DNA from: Candidatus Binataceae bacterium
Lineage (GTDB): Bacteria; Desulfobacterota; Binatia; Binatales; Binataceae
Direction: 5' to 3'
NCBI GenBank assembly: GCA_050736715.1
Contig: JBOHWK010000169.1
Location: 73 to 64,072 of the forward strand
DNA length: 64,000 nucleotides
Position 1 is the stretch's first letter, and each line of letters begins with the position of its first letter. The notes beneath the pieces are model-generated. The model was given only the letters and a program-made list of their open reading frames with translations. It was not told where the DNA came from and searched no databases. Shown piece by piece: positions 3,644-17,754 of the stretch. A program made the position numbers and the translations under genes.

Positions 3644-5254
3644 GTGGCGTGGGAGGACGCATCGAAATTGAAGCGGTTGGGTGGTATCGCCCGAATCGTG
3701 GCCGCGATTGCCGCAATGGTGGCTGTCGCGGGATGCGGTTATGCGCCGGGGTTTACCCGGCTGTCAAAAATCGAGCAGCCGAAACCGAAGAAATCGACGT
3801 TCTTCCTCGCTTCCGCCCACTGCCAATTGTGCCATCCCGCGGAGTACGAGGAATGGCGCACCTCGATGCATGCGTATGCGCAGCACAGCCCCGTCTTTCT
3901 CTCGTTCAACGATTTCGTCCTCAAATCGAGCGGCGGGTCGCTGGGCGATTTTTGCGAACGCTGCCATACCCCCGTCGGGATGTCGTCGGGCGAAAGCCCG
4001 GTCGAGCCTAATTCCAAGCGATCCGAAGCCGCCCTCGACAGCGTCGGCTGCATCGCGTGCCACTCGGAGCACACCAATAACGCCGAAGCGTCCGGGGTAA
4101 TCCATGTTCCGGTAAACGGCGACAGCGAACCAATTATTTACGGACCCTACTACGGCTACGACGAGCCGGGCGCGCCCAAGAATCCGGCGATGCGCCTGAT
4201 CAAAACGCCCCACGAATCGCGCCATTCCGACTATTTCACCCACGCGCGATTGTGCGCGGCCTGCCATGACGTGTTCTCGCCCGACGGCTTCCGAATCGAG
4301 GAAGCGTACAGCGAATGGAAGAACGGCCCCTACGCGCGGCGCGGCATCCAATGCGAGAACTGCCACATGGGGCCGATTCCCGGCAAACCGTTCGCGCGGA
4401 CGGAATTCACCCGCGACTACATAGTCGATCCCAATCTCTTTCCCAACGCGCCGAAGCGGTACCGCTCCAACCATCGTTTCACCGGTCCCGACTATTCCCT
4501 GCTCGCGGCGTTCGGACAGAATGCGCTCTCGCTCGACAGCGCGTCGTTCAAGAAATTGGAGGCGCAACTCGAAACCCAGCGGGAGACGTTGTTGCGCAAT
4601 GCCGCCACGATGCGGGTGAAGCTGCCCGGCGGCGTGACGGCGGGAGCGGCGCTGCCGATTACGGTCGCGGTGACCAATTCGGGTGCGGGGCATAATCTTC
4701 CGACCGGATTCGCGGCGGAGCGGCAATTGTGGCTCGAGGTGATCGTCACCGACTCAACCGGAAGGCAAATCTTCATCTCCGGCAACACCGATGAAAACGG
4801 CGACCTGCTCGATCCCGACAGCGAGGAAGTCCGCGCGGGCAAGCTGCCGATCGATTTGGACCTATTCAACCTCGAGGCGCAATTCATCAATCTCGATTTC
4901 AAGGGCACCGATGCCGAGAACATCAGCACCGTCAACCGCTTCCTCGACCCGGTTCCGTTCGTGACCCCTCCCCAGACCCCATCCCTCATCAACGGAAATG
5001 TTCCGGCGGGCCGCATCTTCAAGCGCGGAATCCCGCCGCTGGAGACGCGGACGGCGGACTACCGGGTGGAGGTTCCATGGGACGCGGCGGGTCCGCTGAC
5101 CGTATCGGTTCGGCTGCGCTACCGGAATTTGCCGCCCCATCTGCTCGCCGAACTCGGCATCCCGAAATATCGAGCGAAGCTAAGAGTCGTGGACTTGGCC
5201 ACGTTCAAGAAACAGGTTGCGATCGATTCGGCCGCGGTCTCCAGCGCGCGTTGA
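3644..5254 (+). CDS. pentaheme c-type cytochrome, predicted lipoprotein
   Basis: GTG start; signal peptide ending in lipobox VAGC; five CXXCH (CQLCH, CERCH, CIACH, CAACH, CENCH) in the first ~240 aa followed by a ~300-aa non-heme domain. Confidence 0.8.
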   Translation: MAWEDASKLKRLGGIARIVAAIAAMVAVAGCGYAPGFTRLSKIEQPKPKKSTFFLASAHCQLCHPAEYEEWRTSMHAYAQHSPVFLSFNDFVLKSSGGSLGDFCERCHTPVGMSSGESPVEPNSKRSEAALDSVGCIACHSEHTNNAEASGVIHVPVNGDSEPIIYGPYYGYDEPGAPKNPAMRLIKTPHESRHSDYFTHARLCAACHDVFSPDGFRIEEAYSEWKNGPYARRGIQCENCHMGPIPGKPFARTEFTRDYIVDPNLFPNAPKRYRSNHRFTGPDYSLLAAFGQNALSLDSASFKKLEAQLETQRETLLRNAATMRVKLPGGVTAGAALPITVAVTNSGAGHNLPTGFAAERQLWLEVIVTDSTGRQIFISGNTDENGDLLDPDSEEVRAGKLPIDLDLFNLEAQFINLDFKGTDAENISTVNRFLDPVPFVTPPQTPSLINGNVPAGRIFKRGIPPLETRTADYRVEVPWDAAGPLTVSVRLRYRNLPPHLLAELGIPKYRAKLRVVDLATFKKQVAIDSAAVSSAR

Positions 5255-6719: not shown

Positions 6720-7082
6720 ATGATTAAGCAAAGTCTAATTTTGGCTGCCGCGGCCGTGCTCGCGATGCCGGCCGCGTCCGCGTTTGCCGCGGGAAACGCC
6801 GCCGCCGGCGCCGCAGTCGCCGCCAAGAAATGCGCGGGATGCCATGGCGCGACAGGCGCGGGCAACGGTCCGGAGTTGCAGATGCTGAATGTCACCGTCC
6901 CGCCGGTTCCCTGGACGGACAAGGCGAAGATGTCCAAGTTCAGCGACGCCTATCTCACCAAGATCGTCACCGATGGTGGCCGCGCGGTCGGAAAAGGGCC
7001 GCTGATGGCGCCGTTCAAGGGCAAGCTTACCGCCGCGCAGATAAGCGACGCGATCGCCTACATCAGGTCGCTCGCGAAATAG
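6720..7082 (+). CDS. monoheme class I cytochrome c (c55x/c6-like), periplasmic
   Basis: 120 aa; signal peptide; single CAGCH heme site; downstream Met-rich loop (GPLMAPFKG) typical of a Met sixth ligand. Confidence 0.8.
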   Translation: MIKQSLILAAAAVLAMPAASAFAAGNAAAGAAVAAKKCAGCHGATGAGNGPELQMLNVTVPPVPWTDKAKMSKFSDAYLTKIVTDGGRAVGKGPLMAPFKGKLTAAQISDAIAYIRSLAK

Positions 7083-7099: not shown

Positions 7100-7798
7100 G
7101 TGAAAGCTAATCCGCTCGACAGCGCATTCGCGTTTCTGAAGATCGGCCATCAACAGGGCGAGCAATGGGGCACAGCGCTCGATTGGGCGATTATCTTCAC
7201 GCTGGTCCTGAGCGCATCGATCATCGTCCTCGTAATGGTCAGCCGAGCCGCATACCGGGGACGGCAGGAACAGCCCCCGGCGATTTGGCTGAACGTGCTC
7301 GCATTGGGCATATTCCCCGTGCTGCTCCTATTTTTCGGAAATTTCGCTGTATTCAGCTACGCGGAGCAGGAGCAATTTTGCGCATCATGCCATCTCACGA
7401 TGCAGCCGTACATCAATGACATCGACAATCCAAGCAGCAAAAGCCTGGCCGCCTGGCACCATCAGAACCACTTTTCGCCGGGCGGCGAGGAGGCCTGCTA
7501 CACCTGCCACGCCGACTACGGAATTCACGGCACCTTCAGGGCCAAACTGTCGGGCCTGCACGACGCGTATGCGTATGCAACGCACACCTATCGTCTGCCG
7601 ATTAAGCTCAGGAGGCCATTCAGGAACAGCCTGTGCTTAAAGTGCCATAACAGCACCAGGCTGTTCATGGCGGTCGATTCGCACTTGGGCGAGGACAACA
7701 AGGTTTCGAGCGCAATTTTGGACAATTCGCTGCAGTGCACGGTCTGCCACGGCCCCGCGCACCGGCTCGAACAATTTAAGAAGGCGGCGAAAACTTAG
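7100..7798 (+). CDS. NapC/NirT/NrfH-family membrane-anchored tetraheme cytochrome c (quinol dehydrogenase)
   Basis: GTG at 7100 preceded by GGGAG; one N-terminal TM helix (WAIIFTLVLSASIIVLVMV) then four CXXCH (CASCH, CYTCH, CLKCH, CTVCH); ~230 aa, the family's architecture. Confidence 0.8.
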   Translation: MKANPLDSAFAFLKIGHQQGEQWGTALDWAIIFTLVLSASIIVLVMVSRAAYRGRQEQPPAIWLNVLALGIFPVLLLFFGNFAVFSYAEQEQFCASCHLTMQPYINDIDNPSSKSLAAWHHQNHFSPGGEEACYTCHADYGIHGTFRAKLSGLHDAYAYATHTYRLPIKLRRPFRNSLCLKCHNSTRLFMAVDSHLGEDNKVSSAILDNSLQCTVCHGPAHRLEQFKKAAKT

Positions 7799-7800
7799 CC

Positions 7801-8346
7801 ATGCCCAGTCTTCAAGTCCGAAGAGGTAATTGGCCGCCGCGATTGCTCACCGCGGCGCAGATAATGGCCGGGCTCGTCGCGCTGATCGTGCTATTCGCGA
7901 CTTTGACCCTGAATCCATTTCTGATTCTCGGTTTCACATTCCTTGAGGTTCTGCTTCCGATCGCCGTGGTGTGCTTCTTTGTCGTGGCAGTCGCTTCGCT
8001 CCATCCCACGATTACCGAATTTTTCGAACCGGGGGACGTAATCTTTGAGGAGGGGACGGAGGGAAGACACCTCTACTTGATTAAAAAAGGCCGCGTTGAA
8101 CTCCTTAAAAAGAACCCGGAAGGAGCCTTCGAAGTCGTCTCACAGCTGAGCGAAGGACAGCGTTTCGGCTACGCCGCGATCTTCCATCGCCTCCACCGCA
8201 TCTATACCGCTCGCGCGGCCGGCAAATGCGAAGTTGTGAAGATGACACCCGCCGGATTCTTTGCGTCGGTCGAACCCGCCGAAGCGGAACGCATCCTCCA
8301 GTTTGGCGCCGCGCTGACGCTCGAACAGGGAAAGCCGAATCAGTGA
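7801..8346 (+). CDS. membrane protein with a C-terminal cyclic-nucleotide-binding (CAP-family) domain
   Basis: Two predicted TM helices followed by GDVIFEEGTEGRHLYLIKKGRVEL...GYAAIF, matching the cNMP-binding beta-roll signature; 2 nt after the NapC-like gene. Confidence 0.65.
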   Translation: MPSLQVRRGNWPPRLLTAAQIMAGLVALIVLFATLTLNPFLILGFTFLEVLLPIAVVCFFVVAVASLHPTITEFFEPGDVIFEEGTEGRHLYLIKKGRVELLKKNPEGAFEVVSQLSEGQRFGYAAIFHRLHRIYTARAAGKCEVVKMTPAGFFASVEPAEAERILQFGAALTLEQGKPNQ

Positions 8347-8437: not shown

Positions 8438-11071
8438 ATGAAGCGGGGGATTATAGTCGCGCTGCTTCTGTTGATCGCCGGGTTTCCCGGCAGCCTGCTC
8501 GCCGCCGCTCCCGCAAAAGCTCCCACATGTACGCCGCTGCCTGCGGCTTCGACGCCCGGCTTCGCCACGATTCTCCTGACCTACATGGACAACTTCTGCT
8601 ACCTGAGTTGGGAGCATGACGCTCAAATCCGGTCGGCCAAAGGCACCCATCCGTATGTAAAGGTCTATTACTCGCCATCAATGTGGACGTGGCTCGAAGC
8701 CGGCGACCGCGAGGCCACCGTTCCCGACGGCGCGATGCTGGTAAAGGAACAGTACCAGACCCTTACCGCGCCGCTTTCCGAATGGACGATCATGGTCAAG
8801 GACCACACCGGATCGTGGGACGGCTGGTATTGGGCGGATTTCGCTTCGCCGAAGAAAGGCCCGCCGAAGTCACCGCCGTCCGCCACGGACGCATCCGGCG
8901 CGGCAAGTACCGTTGCAGCCGCTGCGCAGGGCAAGTATGGATGCGGGGAGCCGACGCTTACTTTCGCCGGCTTCGGTTCCGGCAACGGCAACACCTGTAT
9001 CGGATGCCATGCGTCGGCGGCGGACGGCCAGGGAACCTTTTCCAGCACCGATTACGTAGGCGCGGCATTGACGCCGCCCGATCTCAACGCGCCGCCGATT
9101 CTCGACAATATCCACCAGATTGGCGCCCGCCTGGCGGATATGCGCGCGATTGCCGCGCTCGATGCCGCCGGCGCAACTCCGCTTGAGAACGCAGTATCGC
9201 CCGATGACATCCGTCCGCTCTCCGCCGGGAAGGCGGCGTGCATGCCGCCCGAATCGCTCGACCACGTGGTGGCAGGCGGACAGCCCACCGGCGGCCCGGA
9301 AGAATTCCTGACTTCGGATCAATGCGCGTCGTGCCACGATGCGACCGGGACAATCTCGGGCACGGGCCGGGCGGATATTCCGAGTATGTTGTGGCCCGAC
9401 GCGATCACGCCGCTCGCGAATCTCTCCGAATACGGCGAGTGGCGCTATTCGATGATGGGGCTGGCGGGGCGCGATCCGATCTTCTTTTCGCAGCTCAATT
9501 CGGAATCCACCATCCATGACAATCTGCAAGGATTGCCCGGCAACCCCAGCCCTCCGCTGTTCGTGCAGAACTTATGTCTTCATTGCCACGGCGTGATGGG
9601 ACAGCGGCAACTGCAGATCGATACCGGCGGCACCGGGCTCTTGTCTCGCGCGGAACTGAACGATCCGAATTCAAAATACGGCGCGCTCGGCCGCGACGGC
9701 ATCTCGTGCCTCGTTTGCCATCATATTTCTCCCGAAGGTCTGGGCGACCCTTCCACCTTCACCGGCGATTTCAACGTCGGTCCCGCGACCGAAGTTTACG
9801 CCCAGTACCCCGATCCGATAACGTTGCCGATGGATAACGCGCTGGGTATCACGCCTGAGGACGGCAGCCAGATCGGCGATCCCGCGATGTGTGGATCGTG
9901 CCACACGATCATCCTGCCGGTGTACGCCGCCAACGGGAATCAAGTCATGGAAGGCGGCGTGCCCAAAACATTTTACGAGCAGGCGACATTTCCAGAATGG
10001 CTGAACAGCAACTTCGCAACGGTTCCCTGCCAAACCTGCCATATGCCGGACACGTATCATGGCAGTCCGCTCTCGTACAAAATCGCGAACATCGAGGACA
10101 ATACCTTCCCGGCGTTCCCGTTCGTCGCCCCCGCCGAGGACATCACGATGCAAGTGCGGCAGCCGTTCAACCGCCACACTCTCCTCGGCATCAACGTCTT
10201 CGCGCTGGAGATGTTCGGGCAGTTCCGCACCGCGCTGGGGCTTTATGCGACGGACCCACAATTGCCCGGCAATGCCGCAAAGGCGATTTCCAGCCAAAAA
10301 ACCGCAGTCGTGGAAGCGGTGAATGAGGCCGTTACCCAGACCGCGACGGTCGATATTCTTTCCGCTACCAGAGTTGGCGGCACGATTCAGGCCGATGTGA
10401 CAGTGACGAACCTGGCCGGGCATAGTTTCCCGTCTGGGGTGGGCTTCCGCCGCGCATTCGTGGATTTTCAGGTGCTCGGTCCGGGCGGGAAAGTACTGTG
10501 GGCATCGGGCGACACGAATAAGAAAGGGGTGATCGTCGGCATCAAGCGCAAGCCGCTCATCACGGAATACTTCACTCCCAAGCAGCAGGCCTTCCAGCCG
10601 CACTTTTGGATCGGCAATCCGATTACCAGCGAAAACCAGGCGCAGATTTACGAGGAATTGGTCGCCGATCCGCAGGGACAATTGACCACCAGCTTTCTCA
10701 GCTTGGACAACAAGGTAAAGGACAACCGGCTCCAGCCGCAGGGATGGTCCGTGGACGGGCCGTTCGCCGAGGAAACCGGCCCGGCCGGCGGCGCGTCTGA
10801 CGACCCCGATTACACGACCACCGACAGCCCCGGCTCCAACACGATTCGTTACGAGGTGCCGATTAATTCCAAGACCACGAACGCGATCGCGGTGAGCGCG
10901 ACCTTGTACTATCAGGCAATCCCGCCCTATTACCTGTATATGCGCTCGCACGACGCGAGCGGCCCCGACACCTCCCGTTTGAACGATTTCACCAAGCGGC
11001 TGCGCGTCAAAGGCACCCCCGTGGACAACTGGCGGCTGCAAATCGCGACGCAAACGCAGAATATTCAGTAG
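8438..11071 (+). CDS. large secreted multiheme c-type cytochrome (6 CXXCH) with an N-terminal non-heme domain
   Basis: 877 aa; Sec signal; CIGCH, CASCH, CLHCH, CLVCH, CGSCH, CQTCH; N-terminal ~150 aa is aromatic-rich (FCYLSWEHD...DGWYWADF) without heme motifs; GGGGAAG RBS. Confidence 0.8.
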   Translation: MKRGIIVALLLLIAGFPGSLLAAAPAKAPTCTPLPAASTPGFATILLTYMDNFCYLSWEHDAQIRSAKGTHPYVKVYYSPSMWTWLEAGDREATVPDGAMLVKEQYQTLTAPLSEWTIMVKDHTGSWDGWYWADFASPKKGPPKSPPSATDASGAASTVAAAAQGKYGCGEPTLTFAGFGSGNGNTCIGCHASAADGQGTFSSTDYVGAALTPPDLNAPPILDNIHQIGARLADMRAIAALDAAGATPLENAVSPDDIRPLSAGKAACMPPESLDHVVAGGQPTGGPEEFLTSDQCASCHDATGTISGTGRADIPSMLWPDAITPLANLSEYGEWRYSMMGLAGRDPIFFSQLNSESTIHDNLQGLPGNPSPPLFVQNLCLHCHGVMGQRQLQIDTGGTGLLSRAELNDPNSKYGALGRDGISCLVCHHISPEGLGDPSTFTGDFNVGPATEVYAQYPDPITLPMDNALGITPEDGSQIGDPAMCGSCHTIILPVYAANGNQVMEGGVPKTFYEQATFPEWLNSNFATVPCQTCHMPDTYHGSPLSYKIANIEDNTFPAFPFVAPAEDITMQVRQPFNRHTLLGINVFALEMFGQFRTALGLYATDPQLPGNAAKAISSQKTAVVEAVNEAVTQTATVDILSATRVGGTIQADVTVTNLAGHSFPSGVGFRRAFVDFQVLGPGGKVLWASGDTNKKGVIVGIKRKPLITEYFTPKQQAFQPHFWIGNPITSENQAQIYEELVADPQGQLTTSFLSLDNKVKDNRLQPQGWSVDGPFAEETGPAGGASDDPDYTTTDSPGSNTIRYEVPINSKTTNAIAVSATLYYQAIPPYYLYMRSHDASGPDTSRLNDFTKRLRVKGTPVDNWRLQIATQTQNIQ

Positions 11072-13023: not shown

Positions 13024-15513
13024 TCATTCGGTAGAACCGGAAGGCGCCGGCGTGGGGGTGAATCCCGGCATCGCGACGCCGACTGGGAAGTTCAGGTGCG
13101 TCCGGCCTCCGCGGATGACGATGCTCGGTGGGAGGTCGCAGGTGGGCGCCGGATTGCCACTGCAATCGAAATCATCCCAGACCAGGAGGCTGTTGGTCAG
13201 GTGATCCACCACATAGAGATCGTCGTTGTCGTAGTTGTTCCAAGCGATCCCGACCGGCCGTTTGAGTTTGGTCTTCTTGCCGGCGATCGTTCCGATCAGA
13301 GGCGACGCATTCGTTAACGCGGTCGTGGGGTCGCAGAAGTTATTCGGGTTAGTCGGGCCTCCCACGCAGCACGAATACGGAGTTTGGTACCCGGTGCATA
13401 CGCTGTTCGTGATATCGAAAATCTTAATCCCGACTTGGCCGCAAGTACCCGTCCCCGTGCCGGTGCAACAAGCGTATGGGGTGCCATTGCAGAAACCCTG
13501 ACCGGGTCCGCTGCAGCAACTATTCGGCGCCTCGAAGCCGGTGCACTCGCTATTCGGGCCGTCGCAGGTACCCGTCCCTGCGCCGCTGCAACACGCATAC
13601 GGCGCGCCGAGTCCGGTACAGTCGCCGTTTATGTTGTCGCAGGTGCCCGTTCCTGCGCCGGTACAACAGGCAAACGGCGCTGGATCGGTAGGGGGAGTGC
13701 TGTCGGGACCGGCAGTGCATTTGGTATTGATATCGAGGCATTTGGAGGTTAGCGCGGGATTGCCGACGTCGGTAACGAACAAGTTGCTGCTGTCCGCGGT
13801 GACGGCGAGGAATTGCGGGCCGACCAGCGGACCGGCTAATAGCGGCGGAAGGTTCGCGCCCACGGCGCCTACCGGAATTACGTCTCCGGCGGCGTCCGGC
13901 GCGAATACCAGGACTGCCGCAATGCCCTTGGTTTCGCCGGCGGCGTCCGTGACAAACAGATTGTTATTGCCGTTGAATGCCAGCCCGGACGGGCCGAGCA
14001 GGACGGTGTTGCATCCCGCAATCGTGGCCAGCTTTGTGATCGTTGGCGGCTGCAGGCCCGGAACCGGGCAACTGGTGCAGGCGGCGTTTTGCTCGAAGAT
14101 TTCGCCCGCGTTAATCGGAGAGTTATTGCCCGACGCGTCGGATTCGTTCGTGTAATATTCGTTAATTGACCCGACGCTCGCCGCCGCGCCCAAGCCCGCA
14201 CTTATGCTGTTGCAGGTGCCGGTGCCGGGGCCTGTGCAGCAGGTATAAGGCGCGGCGCAACTGCCAACCCCCAATCCGGTGCAACACGCAACCGGCTCCT
14301 CATTGCCGGTGCATCCGGCGTTGCCTACCCCGGTGCACTCGGCGTTCGTGGGGGGAGTCGCCGGATCGCAGGTTATGGGGCAGAGCAGGCCGTTAATCCC
14401 GGTTGCGTTAGCTCCGCTGCAAGTGGTGTCGGTTCGCTCGCAATCTCCCGTTCCCGCCCCGGTACAGCACGGGAAAGCGCTTGGCTCCATTGTTATCTGG
14501 TTAATGCCGGTTCCCGGCCCGGTGCACTCCACACTTGGAAGAGGGGTATGGACAGTCTCGGTGGGACTCACGAAAAACCCATAATTCGACACGGCGAAAT
14601 ACTCGCCGGTGTTGCCGTTTCCTTGCGCGATGCCATCGGCAACGAGGGGATCGTCGGTATTGTACGGATTGGCGAAGGCGATGTCCTCCGGTGCGAACAG
14701 CCCCGCTTGGTCGCCGTCAGCAAGTCCCGCGGGGCAGGAACCGGCCTCCGGGCCGGTGCAGCATGGGTAAGGTATTCCGCAAGTGCCGGCGTTTTTGCCG
14801 ATGCAGCAGGAATTCGGCAGCCCTTTGGCGGTGCATCCGGAGTTGCCGCAGGTGCCCATCCCATCGCCGGTGCAACATGGATACGGCTCCGCGAATGCCG
14901 TGCAGGCGGCGTTAGGACTGGAAGTCGGTCCCGACAAGCACTCCGAGTTGCTGGAAGAATTCGGCATCGGAGAAGAAATCGTTGCGGCTGGGGGCGTATT
15001 GCCGTTGGACGAACCGGGCGAGAACAATCCGATTGAAAAGAAAAGCTGCGTGGCCAAGCCCGCGTTGACTTCGGTGTTCGTTTCGACCATGGGACTGTTG
15101 GACAGCGAACCGACCCCGATCCCGCCGACGACGGCGACGGACGGGGCGATCATGCCGGTTTTGTTGCCCTTGATTTCGGTGGCGGGCTTGGCATTGCCGT
15201 GGGAGCAGGGAGCGAAAGTCTCGACCGAGCCGGCGCCGCCGCCGTAGTTGGATACCGCCAGGCCCGCGAGTGGAGCGGTGGGAAATTCCGACGTATCCAT
15301 CCCGTCGGGGCATTTGCCGCTTTTCGCGTCCGCCTTCGCCTTGGACCCCGCGAAGCTGACGCCCGCCGTCGCCGCAAGCATCGCGGCGATCGCGAACGCC
15401 GCCGCCGGAACCGCAAGCCGGCGAACTGCGGCGGCAAGACGCCCCGCCGCCGTGCGGGCGGGCGAAACTCCATGCGCCTCTTGAGCCATCGTTTGCATTT
15501 TTCCCTGCGTCAT
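13024..15513 (-). CDS. large secreted Cys/Gly/Thr-rich repeat protein with NHL-like beta-propeller repeats
   Basis: 829 aa; ATG at 15513 with GGGGGT RBS; signal peptide (RRLAVPAAAFAIAAMLAATAG); ~11 degenerate repeats of PY-x-CC(T/S)G-x-G(T)G(T)C; NLFVTD / DLYVVDHLTNSLLVWD NHL-type motifs. Confidence 0.7.
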   Translation of the reverse strand: MTQGKMQTMAQEAHGVSPARTAAGRLAAAVRRLAVPAAAFAIAAMLAATAGVSFAGSKAKADAKSGKCPDGMDTSEFPTAPLAGLAVSNYGGGAGSVETFAPCSHGNAKPATEIKGNKTGMIAPSVAVVGGIGVGSLSNSPMVETNTEVNAGLATQLFFSIGLFSPGSSNGNTPPAATISSPMPNSSSNSECLSGPTSSPNAACTAFAEPYPCCTGDGMGTCGNSGCTAKGLPNSCCIGKNAGTCGIPYPCCTGPEAGSCPAGLADGDQAGLFAPEDIAFANPYNTDDPLVADGIAQGNGNTGEYFAVSNYGFFVSPTETVHTPLPSVECTGPGTGINQITMEPSAFPCCTGAGTGDCERTDTTCSGANATGINGLLCPITCDPATPPTNAECTGVGNAGCTGNEEPVACCTGLGVGSCAAPYTCCTGPGTGTCNSISAGLGAAASVGSINEYYTNESDASGNNSPINAGEIFEQNAACTSCPVPGLQPPTITKLATIAGCNTVLLGPSGLAFNGNNNLFVTDAAGETKGIAAVLVFAPDAAGDVIPVGAVGANLPPLLAGPLVGPQFLAVTADSSNLFVTDVGNPALTSKCLDINTKCTAGPDSTPPTDPAPFACCTGAGTGTCDNINGDCTGLGAPYACCSGAGTGTCDGPNSECTGFEAPNSCCSGPGQGFCNGTPYACCTGTGTGTCGQVGIKIFDITNSVCTGYQTPYSCCVGGPTNPNNFCDPTTALTNASPLIGTIAGKKTKLKRPVGIAWNNYDNDDLYVVDHLTNSLLVWDDFDCSGNPAPTCDLPPSIVIRGGRTHLNFPVGVAMPGFTPTPAPSGSTE

Positions 15514-15816
15514 TTTGTAACCCCCGCCGAATTCGGATCGACTCCCCGTTGCAGGACCAATCAGCGTTGCGCGTGTTAACTACCTTTTTCCGGCGGCAAT
15601 TTCAAGAGCACCGCAATTATTTTTGTGGCTGCGCCCGGCGGCGAGGTCGCCGGCCGTCGCTCCGGGAAGTCCGTCGTACTTGACAAGGCGGGGATCGGAA
15701 TGGTACCTAAGCCGCGTCCGCAGAGCGTCGCCTGCACTGGCGGGCGATGGGGTCTCCCGGCCGGGGCCGGAAGATTTGCGATGCCGCGAGAGCTCCAATT
15801 TGGCTTGGGGGTAGGT

Positions 15817-17754
15817 ATGCAGCACGGGAACATGGGACGCATGACGAGGGGGCGGATATTGCTCGTGGCCGCAATCGCGGCGGCGGCGACCTTGTGGTCC
15901 TCCGCCGCGATGGCGACGATCACTCAGGGCGATTTTTCCGTTTACGGATTCTTCGAGACCCGCGAATCGGGCCGCTGGGGCGAGGCCAGCGTCAAGAACA
16001 ACGGCACCCAGACCACCTACACTCATCCCATTCCGGGTGCGACCGAAGTTCTAAAGGGCGGGCAAGCAGGCAGCTACACCGGGGGCAGCTTCGATTTCAA
16101 TCATTGGGACCTGGTGGAAGCTCGCCAACTCGGCGACATCCGCCCCGACTATCATTTCGTAAAAAACTACAAATTCCTCGGTCGGTTCGACACGATTCTC
16201 CTCAAGGATGCCGACTTCTTTGCGTTGTGGCGGCCGTGGTACGACGCGGAAGGAGACCTCAAGAGCCAAGGAGTCGCCAACACCAACCGCGATTGGAACA
16301 ATTACCAGCACTACCAGATCACGCAGCAATACATCCGGGACGATCTGCACGAATATTACGCACAGTTGAATTTCACCGATAATTTCTCCGCGCGCATCGG
16401 CAAGCAGCAGGTAATTTGGTCGGAGGCGGACGCCTTATCGGGCACCGAGATCACCAACTCGGTGGACACCACCTATCACTGGCTGAACTTCGAATCGCCC
16501 GAAGACCTGCGCAAGAACGTGCGGATGATCAAGTTCAACTACATTCTCCCCGATATGTACAAGACCGCCAACAATGAAATCGACTTTTTCATTATTCCCG
16601 GCGATTTCCAGGGCGATGGCATCAATGTCAATCTCGGCGACGCCCGCAATCCGTGGACGCCGCCGGCGGCCGGCAGCCATTCGGCGTTGCTGTCGTCCTC
16701 GTACAACCAGAACGGCGAACCGTATTACGCCGCGACACCGCAACGGAGCGGCGCCGCGCCGATGACTCTGGTTTCGGCCGCGGGCGGCGGCGGCACATTT
16801 TTCGACCTGATGGAGGAGCCGTACGGCCACCCGCCCAGCAACTCGCTGGAAAACAGCGAATTCGGAATGCGCATCTCGAGCCTGCTGCCGATTGGCAACG
16901 GCCTCCAGATGAGTTTCATCTATTTGTACGAGGCGCGCGACTCCAAAATCAGCCTGTGCTCGAGTTGCGGTCCGCTGCAAGCGCAGCGGGCTTCGGCGGA
17001 ATTCATGGGGGCCGGTGCAAGGGCCTCGAACTGGGAATATCCGCCGGGAGGAATCGCGGCGCCCGCCGGGACCTTCGTCAATTTCGGCAACTACCGGTAT
17101 GGCTTCCCGCGCGCCGGCGTGCCGAAGGCCGGGACGGTGCTGGTCATGTACAACACCGATTACCGCCGCAATAACTTCTTCGATTTGACCGGCACCTATT
17201 ACGACAAGGACCTCACCGACATCGTGTACCGCTACGACTTTTTCTACGCCCCGAAGGTGGGTATCGCCACCGTCGAACCCTACGGAAAACTGGCCGGCCT
17301 GCCGGGTCCGGGAGCGGCGGGACAATGGACCCAGGAGTCCCGCTGGATCGTGGCCGCTGACCGGCCGACCTATATCCCGTGGATTTCCAAGCAGCACACC
17401 TTCCTGACCTTCCAGAACACCCTGACTTGGTATCCCGCCCTGCCGGAGCATGCGGTGGCCAATCTGCTGCAAACCGCGGGGAAGATTCGCGAGACCAGCG
17501 ATCTGTTTTTGGTGGCCGCGACCGATTGGCTGATGAACGGCCAGTTGACGACGCTGAATGCGGCCGCGTGGGACGTCGACGACCGCGTCGGCGAAATTAC
17601 CACCAGCAATTCGTACCGCTATTCGCGCAACGTTCTGTTCGGCGTGAACAGCGTCTGGTATCTGGGACAGAGCGGTAGGTACACCGATCCTTACACCTTC
17701 AGCCGCAGCCAGGTGATGAACGAATTGGAATTCACCCTGACCTACGAGATTTAG
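15817..17754 (+). CDS. large secreted/outer-membrane protein, hypothetical (possibly DUF1302-like)
   Basis: ATG at 15817 after GGGGGTAGG; signal peptide RILLVAAIAAAATLWSSAAMA; 646 aa, Tyr/Asn/Gly-rich beta-strand-like periodicity; DUF1302 assignment is from memory of family size only. Confidence 0.5.
   Translation: MQHGNMGRMTRGRILLVAAIAAAATLWSSAAMATITQGDFSVYGFFETRESGRWGEASVKNNGTQTTYTHPIPGATEVLKGGQAGSYTGGSFDFNHWDLVEARQLGDIRPDYHFVKNYKFLGRFDTILLKDADFFALWRPWYDAEGDLKSQGVANTNRDWNNYQHYQITQQYIRDDLHEYYAQLNFTDNFSARIGKQQVIWSEADALSGTEITNSVDTTYHWLNFESPEDLRKNVRMIKFNYILPDMYKTANNEIDFFIIPGDFQGDGINVNLGDARNPWTPPAAGSHSALLSSSYNQNGEPYYAATPQRSGAAPMTLVSAAGGGGTFFDLMEEPYGHPPSNSLENSEFGMRISSLLPIGNGLQMSFIYLYEARDSKISLCSSCGPLQAQRASAEFMGAGARASNWEYPPGGIAAPAGTFVNFGNYRYGFPRAGVPKAGTVLVMYNTDYRRNNFFDLTGTYYDKDLTDIVYRYDFFYAPKVGIATVEPYGKLAGLPGPGAAGQWTQESRWIVAADRPTYIPWISKQHTFLTFQNTLTWYPALPEHAVANLLQTAGKIRETSDLFLVAATDWLMNGQLTTLNAAAWDVDDRVGEITTSNSYRYSRNVLFGVNSVWYLGQSGRYTDPYTFSRSQVMNELEFTLTYEI

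Follow-up and report, generated by a model that had tools for sequence, protein, structure and literature searches.

The gene at positions 7801 to 8346 of the window, a 64,000-nt stretch of a Candidatus Binataceae contig (JBOHWK010000169.1), encodes a 181-residue protein in which two N-terminal transmembrane (TM) helices are followed by a cyclic nucleotide-binding domain (CNBD). The comparisons reported here favor the reading, to which a probability of about 0.62 was assigned, that a distinct branch of CymA-like NapC/NirT quinol dehydrogenases with two TM helices has a conserved membrane partner, itself of two helices, that this gene encodes the version of the partner with a CNBD, and that the sensor is vestigial in this organism. 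The constant element of the family, judged by its sequences, is the TM hairpin; the CNBD is a C-terminal addition found in a large subset.

The evidence for the pairing came from a survey of loci. An alignment of the NapC-like subfamily was used to scan one genome per species, yielding 80 loci. All stop-to-stop open reading frames (ORFs) of these loci were searched with purpose-built hidden Markov models (HMMs), and 79 of the loci were informative. A hairpin gene directly followed the gene for the two-TM NapC-like cytochrome in 79/79, so that the co-occurrence with NapC-type homologues, which the initial annotation had named as a check, was borne out. The partner was full length in 58 loci, with the hairpin and a C-terminal CNBD encoded on the same strand, and consisted of the hairpin alone in the other 21. 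The loci were from Binatia, Methylomirabilota/Rokubacteria, “Proteobacteria” metagenome-assembled genomes (MAGs), Acidobacteriota, Myxococcota, Elusimicrobia, Xenobia, and Holophagae. The spacing from the cytochrome stop codon to the partner start was mostly −4, −1, 0, or +2 nt, the two genes usually overlapping or abutting. In the 21 hairpin-only loci, the partner was an ORF of 62 to 74 residues, mostly starting 4 nt before the cytochrome stop codon, and encoded two helices and a C terminus of the form ...DLRxKxL[FL].

To relate the small proteins to the CNBD-bearing ones, profiles were compared. When 9,306 ORF segments were searched, the hairpin-only HMM recovered its training set, more small ORFs in the same slot, and the N termini of 37 CNBD-bearing partners, with no match to other membrane proteins among these segments. 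In HHalign, the small hairpins aligned to columns 16 to 74 of the CNBD family with a probability of 95.8% (E value, 6.9e-9; 92 to 96% for the wider family), and to the window's clade alone with a probability of 72.9% (E value, 3e-5), which is moderate support. Controls with reversed sequences and with the cytochrome's own hairpin gave 1.7 to 3.4%. The hairpin rather than the CNBD was taken to be the constant element because 21 loci carry it alone and because close relatives of the window's protein have lost the CNBD.

The cytochrome of the pair has a membrane anchor of its own type. The window's NapC-like protein matched PF03264 with 32.3 bits (cutoff, 24.1), fell below the NCBIfam equivalog cutoffs for NrfH and NapC, and gave no useful match in a PDB sequence search. 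It has two N-terminal membrane helices (residues ∼26 to 52 and 59 to 85) in place of the single anchor of NapC, NirT, and NrfH, and the family alignment showed a conserved basic loop, RGRQTEG, between them. Its AlphaFold2 model had a predicted local distance difference test (pLDDT) score of 58.9 and was confident only for helices 26 to 52 and 59 to 85, with the heme domain below 60. A monoheme cytochrome c gene lies just upstream of the pair in the window's group and just downstream of it in Acidobacteriota, and in several cases (P0287, P0297, P0300, P0307, and L020:7275-8630) the cytochrome c and the NapC-like protein form a single chain of ∼335 to 450 residues. These fusions provide independent evidence that the two proteins function jointly. 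Apparent fusions of the NapC-like protein to the CNBD in L011, L022, L025, and L026 were rejected, as the NapC-like gene is read in a different frame from the long open frames there.

The initial annotation had described a 181-residue protein with two N-terminal TM helices and a CNBD, lying 2 nt after the NapC-like gene and ∼90 nt before a hexaheme cytochrome gene, and without a helix-turn-helix (HTH) domain; all of these points held. The ORF begins with ATG and includes GDVIFEEGTEGRHLYLIKKGRVEL. The NapC-like ORF stops at 7798, leaving a 2-nt gap, and the next gene starts (ATG) at 8438 after a gap of 91 nt. The only Pfam family found was cNMP_binding (PF00027; residues 73 to 153, 65.7 bits, E value of 3.6e-18, against a cutoff of 27.5 bits). 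Hydropathy analysis gave two hydrophobic stretches (residues 15 to 37 and 39 to 68), and the AlphaFold2 model (mean pLDDT, 84.6) contained helices at 11 to 36 and 39 to 66, beta-roll strands at 70 to 148, and two further helices at 150 to 156 and 159 to 177. The first 68 residues comprise a basic N terminus with a G-N/D-W..R-L motif, TM1, a short “LTLNP” turn, and TM2.

A word-index protein search with this sequence returned only itself and three weak CNBD matches. In an exhaustive search, about sixteen cluster representatives (140 to 230 residues), among thousands of CNBD proteins, aligned across both helices and the CNBD. Two of these, P0127 and P0133, were 44% and 42% identical to the window's protein, and their contigs carry a monoheme cytochrome c gene, a NapC/NirT gene, and then the homologue; on one of them no further gene follows downstream on that strand. 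This is a genuine gene, since full-length homologues of 38 to 44% identity exist in the same gene order. The version deposited at NCBI has 160 residues and starts at M22 (position 7864), 63 nt downstream of the ATG at 7801. Since the closest homologues all have G9, W11, and R14, which precede M22, and helix 1 of the model begins at residue 11, the 181-residue start is the better one; the deposited start codon is too late, and the product lacks some of TM helix 1 as well as the N-terminal motif that the family conserves.

The same data bear on the alternative that the protein is a mis-started or truncated Crp/Fnr regulator or else is secreted, its apparent TM segment being a cleaved signal peptide; either would have undermined the initial annotation. 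Its one point of support is a similarity to the NCBIfam CRP family, which reached 25.7 bits against a cutoff of 266; the NCBIfam matches were confined to CNBD-containing families and were all far below threshold. The Pfam scan found no HTH family, only 28 residues remain after the beta-roll before the protein ends at residue 181, leaving no space for an HTH, and only 91 nt separate the stop codon from the next gene. CNBD-bearing family members are uniformly ∼185 to 210 residues long, and the two conserved helices, with their basic N terminus, are homologous to the stand-alone hairpins. These results refute this alternative, which was given practically no weight.

The identity of the C-terminal domain was clear. 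The model has pLDDT values of 88 to 97 over residues 70 to 150 and shows the eight-stranded beta-roll with subsequent alpha-B and alpha-C helices expected for a CNBD, and Foldseek matched the model only to CNBDs, led by those of CRP, GlxR, the protein kinase A regulatory subunit (PKA-R), and HCN (E value, ∼1e-9). In the model, the CNBD starts three residues after TM2, with neither an N-terminal alpha-A helix nor a C-linker. The phosphate-binding cassette, FGYAAIFHRLHRIYTARA, was found to be degenerate. In the HMMER alignment to yeast PKA-R, Tyr124 aligns with the Glu, Arg133 matches the Arg, and Tyr135 occupies the Ala position; thus, in the window's cassette (FGY...HRIYT), the Glu is replaced by Tyr124 and [STN]-Ala by Ile134/Tyr135, while the signature Arg133 is kept. 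The pattern G-E-x-A-L...R-[STAN]-A-[ST] is absent from the window's protein and present in 49/60 relatives. Among 60 distinct CNBD-bearing partners, these 49 carry the canonical cassette FGE[ML]AL...[PSR]R[NST]AT[VI]R, 8 have Asp in place of Glu and a variable Arg, and 3 have no cassette signature, namely, those of the window (FGYAAIFHRLHRIYT), L008 (FGSAAVFGGARRVGT), and L026.

Further relatives were obtained by a metagenome scan with the window's pentaheme cytochrome as the query, and these keep the order pentaheme cytochrome, 481-residue protein, cytochrome c, NapC-like protein. The cassettes of L145 (FGET...FHHTF) and L098 (FGIH...) are degenerate, each in a different way. In L094 to L096, with the window's order of pentaheme, outer membrane protein, cytochrome c, and NapC-like genes, the CNBD is absent and the partner is a hairpin alone, with a turn (TFNPYL) that resembles the window's LTLNPFL. 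Identity between the window's protein and its nearest relative was 58% in the hairpin, 39% in the beta-roll, and 23% in the C-terminal helices, the pattern expected if cyclic nucleotide binding is unselected in the window's clade and the hairpin is still under selection.

The initial annotation had proposed that this protein couples cAMP, cGMP, or a related ligand to the activity or assembly of the electron transfer chain. A working receptor of that kind, gating or assembling the chain, would fit the intact and well-modeled CNBD fold, the retained Arg133, and the canonical cassettes of orthologues elsewhere. It was nevertheless judged unlikely for the window's copy, in which two signature cassette positions are occupied by Tyr124 and Tyr135. 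The cassettes of its clade are all degenerate, each differently, with some members having lost the domain; its CNBD is less conserved than its hairpin; and the window contains no NDH-2-CNBD partner of the type described below. Binding of cAMP or cGMP by the window's own protein is thus doubtful. With the signature Glu and Ala of the cassette replaced and the window devoid of an NDH-2-CNBD gene, the CNBD has most likely become a structural remnant that does not respond to ligand, the protein acting mainly through its hairpin. The cyclic nucleotide idea probably applies to the family rather than to this copy, the sensor probably being vestigial in the window and functional in other lineages.

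A different possibility is that the protein is an independent membrane-tethered signaling protein, sequestering a regulator, for example, or sensing another ligand such as a nucleoside or heme, and is linked to the cytochrome by coregulation only. A CNBD whose cassette has changed can bind a different ligand, as illustrated by the trypanosome PKA regulatory subunits among the Foldseek matches, which are labeled cAMP-independent and were solved with inosine, and the window's cassette contains many His and Tyr residues. However, even L008, the nearest relative, does not conserve these His and Tyr residues, and hairpin-only versions without any sensor keep the same gene position. The 4-nt overlaps also argue for synthesis matched to that of the cytochrome, and this possibility appears remote.

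The wider gene context in other lineages provided a clue to what intact cassettes may do. Methylomirabilota and Acidobacteriota clusters were found to encode a type II NADH dehydrogenase (NDH-2) of ∼550 residues (Pyr_redox_2 plus NDH2_C) with a C-terminal cNMP_binding domain. This gene was present within the fetched flanks of 33/49 loci with a canonical cassette versus 0/11 with a noncanonical one, and there is none in the window. Examples are L020:9263-10915 (+) and, in L030 to L060, genes at approximately +2300 to +2500 nt relative to the NapC-like gene. In L020 and L021, genes for a 201-residue CNBD protein and for a PAS hybrid histidine kinase come after the NDH-2-CNBD gene. Upstream, the acidobacterial loci encode two multiheme cytochromes, a TPR protein, and a 547-residue protein without a Pfam match. 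Downstream, rokubacterial hairpin-only loci encode a decaheme (MtrA/MtoA-like) cytochrome and a ∼740-residue protein ending in ...GYRF; decaheme and ∼740-residue barrel genes were seen in the hairpin-only loci L063, L067, and L077.

Taken as a subunit of the cytochrome, the partner would be made in amounts matching it, and its hairpin would pack against that of the cytochrome in the inner membrane as a four-helix bundle. From the positive-inside rule and the signal peptides of acidobacterial homologues, the N terminus and hemes of the cytochrome would be periplasmic and only the RGRQTEG loop cytoplasmic, while the partner would expose its basic N terminus and CNBD to the cytoplasm and a turn of 3 to 5 residues to the periplasm. 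With that topology, the CNBD would be the only sizeable cytoplasmic domain of the complex. Where the cassette is canonical, TM2 might relay cyclic nucleotide binding to the quinol site; alternatively, the binding might govern association with the CNBD of NDH-2. Because intact cassettes often adjoin an NDH-2 that has a CNBD of its own, the data suggest joint tuning of quinone reduction and quinol oxidation by a cyclic nucleotide in the canonical lineages. A more specific version, held tentatively and at less than even odds, is that in lineages with intact cassettes (Acidobacteriota, Methylomirabilota, and others) the ligand binds both the CNBD of the hairpin subunit and that of NDH-2, gating a short, non-pumping NADH-quinone-cytochrome route of electron export. 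In the window, the unit of cytochrome c, NapC-like protein, and partner probably connects an electron conduit in the periplasm or outer membrane with the quinone pool, in either direction, since it follows a pentaheme cytochrome and a putative outer membrane barrel.

The same genomic pattern could be produced by an assembly or maturation factor that serves the NapC-like cytochrome in membrane insertion, heme attachment, or stabilization without being a stable subunit. A dedicated chaperone would account equally well for the strict co-occurrence and the translational coupling, and the hairpin alone suffices in 21 loci. On the other side, a canonical CNBD coclustered with NDH-2-CNBD is more naturally understood as control of activity than of biogenesis, and no similarity to known cytochrome maturation families was found in Pfam or NCBIfam; such a role was considered quite unlikely. 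Of the initial proposal of a regulatory or gating membrane subunit, the functional tie to the NapC-like gene stands, the pair being conserved and translationally coupled across several phyla, and a subunit-like role is the best reading; ligand sensing in this copy is doubtful, and the constant element is the hairpin rather than the CNBD.

Several points weigh against the proposed subunit with a vestigial sensor. Contact between partner and cytochrome is deduced from gene order, coupling, and sequence, and the monomer model of the NapC-like protein is poor (pLDDT, 58.9). As stated, an assembly factor would leave an identical genomic pattern. The homology of the hairpins rests on hydrophobic profiles, with just 72.9% for the window's own clade. 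All loci are from MAGs or metagenome contigs, with Flammeovirga sp. OC4 (L090; hairpin-only form) as the one isolate among the carriers, and the counts are phylogenetically nonindependent. The window's protein retains Arg133 and the CNBD fold with its Gly residues, which is compatible with some ligand binding. Finally, the limits of the operon are not defined by any promoter or terminator signal found; promoter and terminator scans and RNA folding of the 91-nt gap gave nothing above shuffled expectation.

The features of the locus are collected in Table 1.

Table 1. Features of the window around the hairpin-CNBD gene
Feature	Position	Strand	Evidence or remark
Pentaheme cytochrome, 536 aa, with non-heme C-terminal domain	3644..5254	+	5 CXXCH; Cytochrome_C554 Pfam match
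Putative outer membrane beta-barrel, 481 aa	5261..6706	+	Signal peptide, C-terminal ...LELIYQF; barrel inferred
Monoheme class I cytochrome c with signal peptide	6720..7082	+	PF00034/PF13442; third member of conserved trio
NapC/NirT family tetraheme cytochrome, conserved upstream partner	7100..7798	+	PF03264, 4 CXXCH; GTG start at 7100 inferred
Two-TM plus CNBD protein gene, 181 aa	7801..8346	+	ORF, Pfam cNMP_binding, full-length homologues, conserved slot after NapC-like gene
N-terminal hairpin segment, aa 1-68	7801..8004	+	Hydropathy, AlphaFold2 helices, invariant G9/W11/R14, profile-profile match to stand-alone hairpins
CNBD beta-roll, aa 69-153	8005..8259	+	Pfam, AlphaFold2 strands, Foldseek
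Degenerate phosphate-binding cassette, aa 122-139	8164..8217	+	Alignment to yeast PKA-R FGEVALLNDLPRQATVTA; family alignment and counts
C-terminal alpha-B/alpha-C helices (“lid”), aa 150-177	8248..8331	+	AlphaFold2 helices 150-156 and 159-177; no HTH Pfam match
Hexaheme cytochrome, 877 aa, adjacent only	8438..11071	+	6 CXXCH; not a member of the conserved unit

The pentaheme cytochrome profile gave weak matches to MccA and to cytochrome c552 (5ze8; E value, 0.017). For the 481-residue protein, no Pfam or NCBIfam family and no useful PDB sequence match were found. Its gene is coconserved with the pentaheme gene in L008, L026, L092 to L101, and L145 and weakly so in marine loci. The latter (L102 to L137) are marine or saline metagenome contigs whose pentaheme homologues, 34 to 40% identical and with an extra N-terminal heme (and a PSCyt1 domain in L124), are each followed by a relative of the 481-residue protein of 530 to 620 residues. 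NapC-like and CNBD genes were absent beside these pairs in the fetched loci, leaving an isolated two-gene module.

The hexaheme gene, which the initial annotation had counted within the cluster, was rejected as a member of the unit, as its homologues stand alone in unrelated contexts. The protein has more than 1,800 homologues at 50 to 65% identity (Binatia, Acidobacteriota, and others) and a weak Cytochrome_P460-like region at its N terminus, and it belongs to a large family of unknown function. Three homologues that were looked up lay alone among hydrogenase, efflux, or catabolic genes; the gene is stand-alone in L002 to L007 and absent from L009/L010 and L012 to L026. The non-heme C-terminal parts of the pentaheme and hexaheme proteins have a short motif in common (AGHNLPTGFAAERQLWLEV and AGHSFPSGVGFRRAFVDFQV, respectively), spotted by eye, which may mark a common beta-rich domain.

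Elsewhere in the window, none of ten larger ORFs checked encoded a cyclase or related regulator. An 829-residue predicted secreted protein with many Cys-rich repeats (..PxxCCTGxGxGxC..) and no Pfam family is encoded at 13024 to 15513 (−), and a 709-residue ORF without a Pfam family at 15625 to 17754 (+) ends in ...FTLTYEI and is possibly another outer membrane barrel. The NapC-like protein has been deposited identically as “Bryobacteraceae bacterium” (P0274), and both adjacent proteins as “Candidatus Binataceae bacterium” (P0001 and P0005); either one contig was binned into two MAGs or the labeling is inconsistent.

Among the closest characterized systems are CymA of Shewanella and the Mto pathway. 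The layout of the mtoABD-cymA cluster of Sideroxydans lithotrophicus has been published (PMC10654088), and there, as in the window, an inner membrane NapC/NirT tetraheme protein stands beside a monoheme cytochrome c, a multiheme cytochrome, and an outer membrane protein. The decaheme and ∼740-residue barrel genes of the hairpin-only relatives likewise match that layout (PMC10654088). The activity of CymA has been reported to be partner dependent (PMC6295460). However, CymA has one N-terminal TM helix and the window's branch two, and neither a small hairpin partner nor a CNBD protein has been described for CymA. A survey from 2018 recovered CymA homologues from Proteobacteria alone, whereas the window's branch occurs in Binatia, Methylomirabilota, Acidobacteriota, and others. 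Unlike the Mtr, Mto, and Pio conduits, with their decaheme cytochrome and ∼700-residue porin, the window has a pentaheme cytochrome and a 481-residue putative barrel. The name “MtoC-like” for the NapC-like neighbor was dropped in favor of CymA-like, as MtoC in the literature denotes CbcL-type proteins.

A similar composition was found in the putative porin-cytochrome operon ptdABCDEFG (bioRxiv 10.1101/2023.11.21.568154), which also includes a CNBD protein, albeit of another kind. The homologue named for PtdA is the pentaheme cytochrome c552 of a thermophilic purple sulfur bacterium (bioRxiv 10.1101/2023.11.21.568154). The likeness is one of composition, a pentaheme cytochrome followed by a porin, the sole sequence link being the weak 5ze8 profile match. 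PtdE is described with two 4Fe-4S clusters, whereas the window's protein has only two cysteines (Cys58 and Cys143), no CxxCxxCxxxC or other Fe-S motif, and two TM helices; the window's locus also has no ferric reductase-like or decaheme gene. A full ptd operon in the marine pentaheme relatives was considered and rejected, only the cytochrome and porin pair being present.

With known CNBD effectors (CRP/GlxR, PKA-R, HCN/SthK/MloK1, and the EAL enzyme Bd1971), the family has in common the beta-roll and, in most members, a canonical cassette, but the window's protein is without a DNA-binding, kinase-binding, pore, or enzymatic domain. Cyclic nucleotide-gated channels resemble it in tethering a CNBD to membrane helices; MloK1, SthK, and HCN differ in having a six-TM voltage sensor and pore module rather than two helices, and a C-linker before the CNBD. 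The cAMP-independent PKA regulatory subunits of trypanosomes (entry titles 6flo, 6h4g, and 6hyi) similarly combine the CNBD fold with an altered cassette that does not serve cAMP. They bind nucleosides and still regulate a kinase, however, whereas the window's substitutions are not conserved among its relatives and indicate no alternative ligand. In Shewanella oneidensis, Crp-cAMP ties a cyclic nucleotide to CymA-dependent respiration (PMC4954811, PMC3519889), but it does so transcriptionally through soluble CRP, whereas the hairpin-CNBD family would act on the enzyme complex. In the searchable literature, no description was found of a CNBD paired with NapC/NrfH, NDH-2, or electron transfer; literature searches likewise yielded no NDH-2-CNBD fusion and no respiratory cytochrome as the target of a CNBD effector.

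Cyclic nucleotide signaling in bacteria acts mainly through transcription factors, together with a few enzymes and channels. The present in silico analysis of uncultured genomes points to a new type of effector for a regulatory CNBD module and to an undescribed small cytochrome subunit. If it is correct, a CNBD on a quinol dehydrogenase and a second one on the adjacent NADH dehydrogenase would allow second messengers to throttle electron flow at the enzyme level, a new class of cyclic nucleotide effector and a posttranslational counterpart of Crp-cAMP respiratory control. The work also corrects the start codon of the deposited protein from M22 to the ATG at 7801, and the canonical and decayed CNBD orthologues form a concrete, testable pair. 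It defines a small, previously unnoticed membrane subunit that goes with a widespread nonproteobacterial CymA-like branch. Many of the clusters resemble extracellular electron transfer conduits of soil Acidobacteriota, Rokubacteria, and Binatia, whose respiratory physiology is little known, and if intact members do exert cyclic nucleotide control, the window's copy would be one in which it decayed, a record of its loss in Binataceae.

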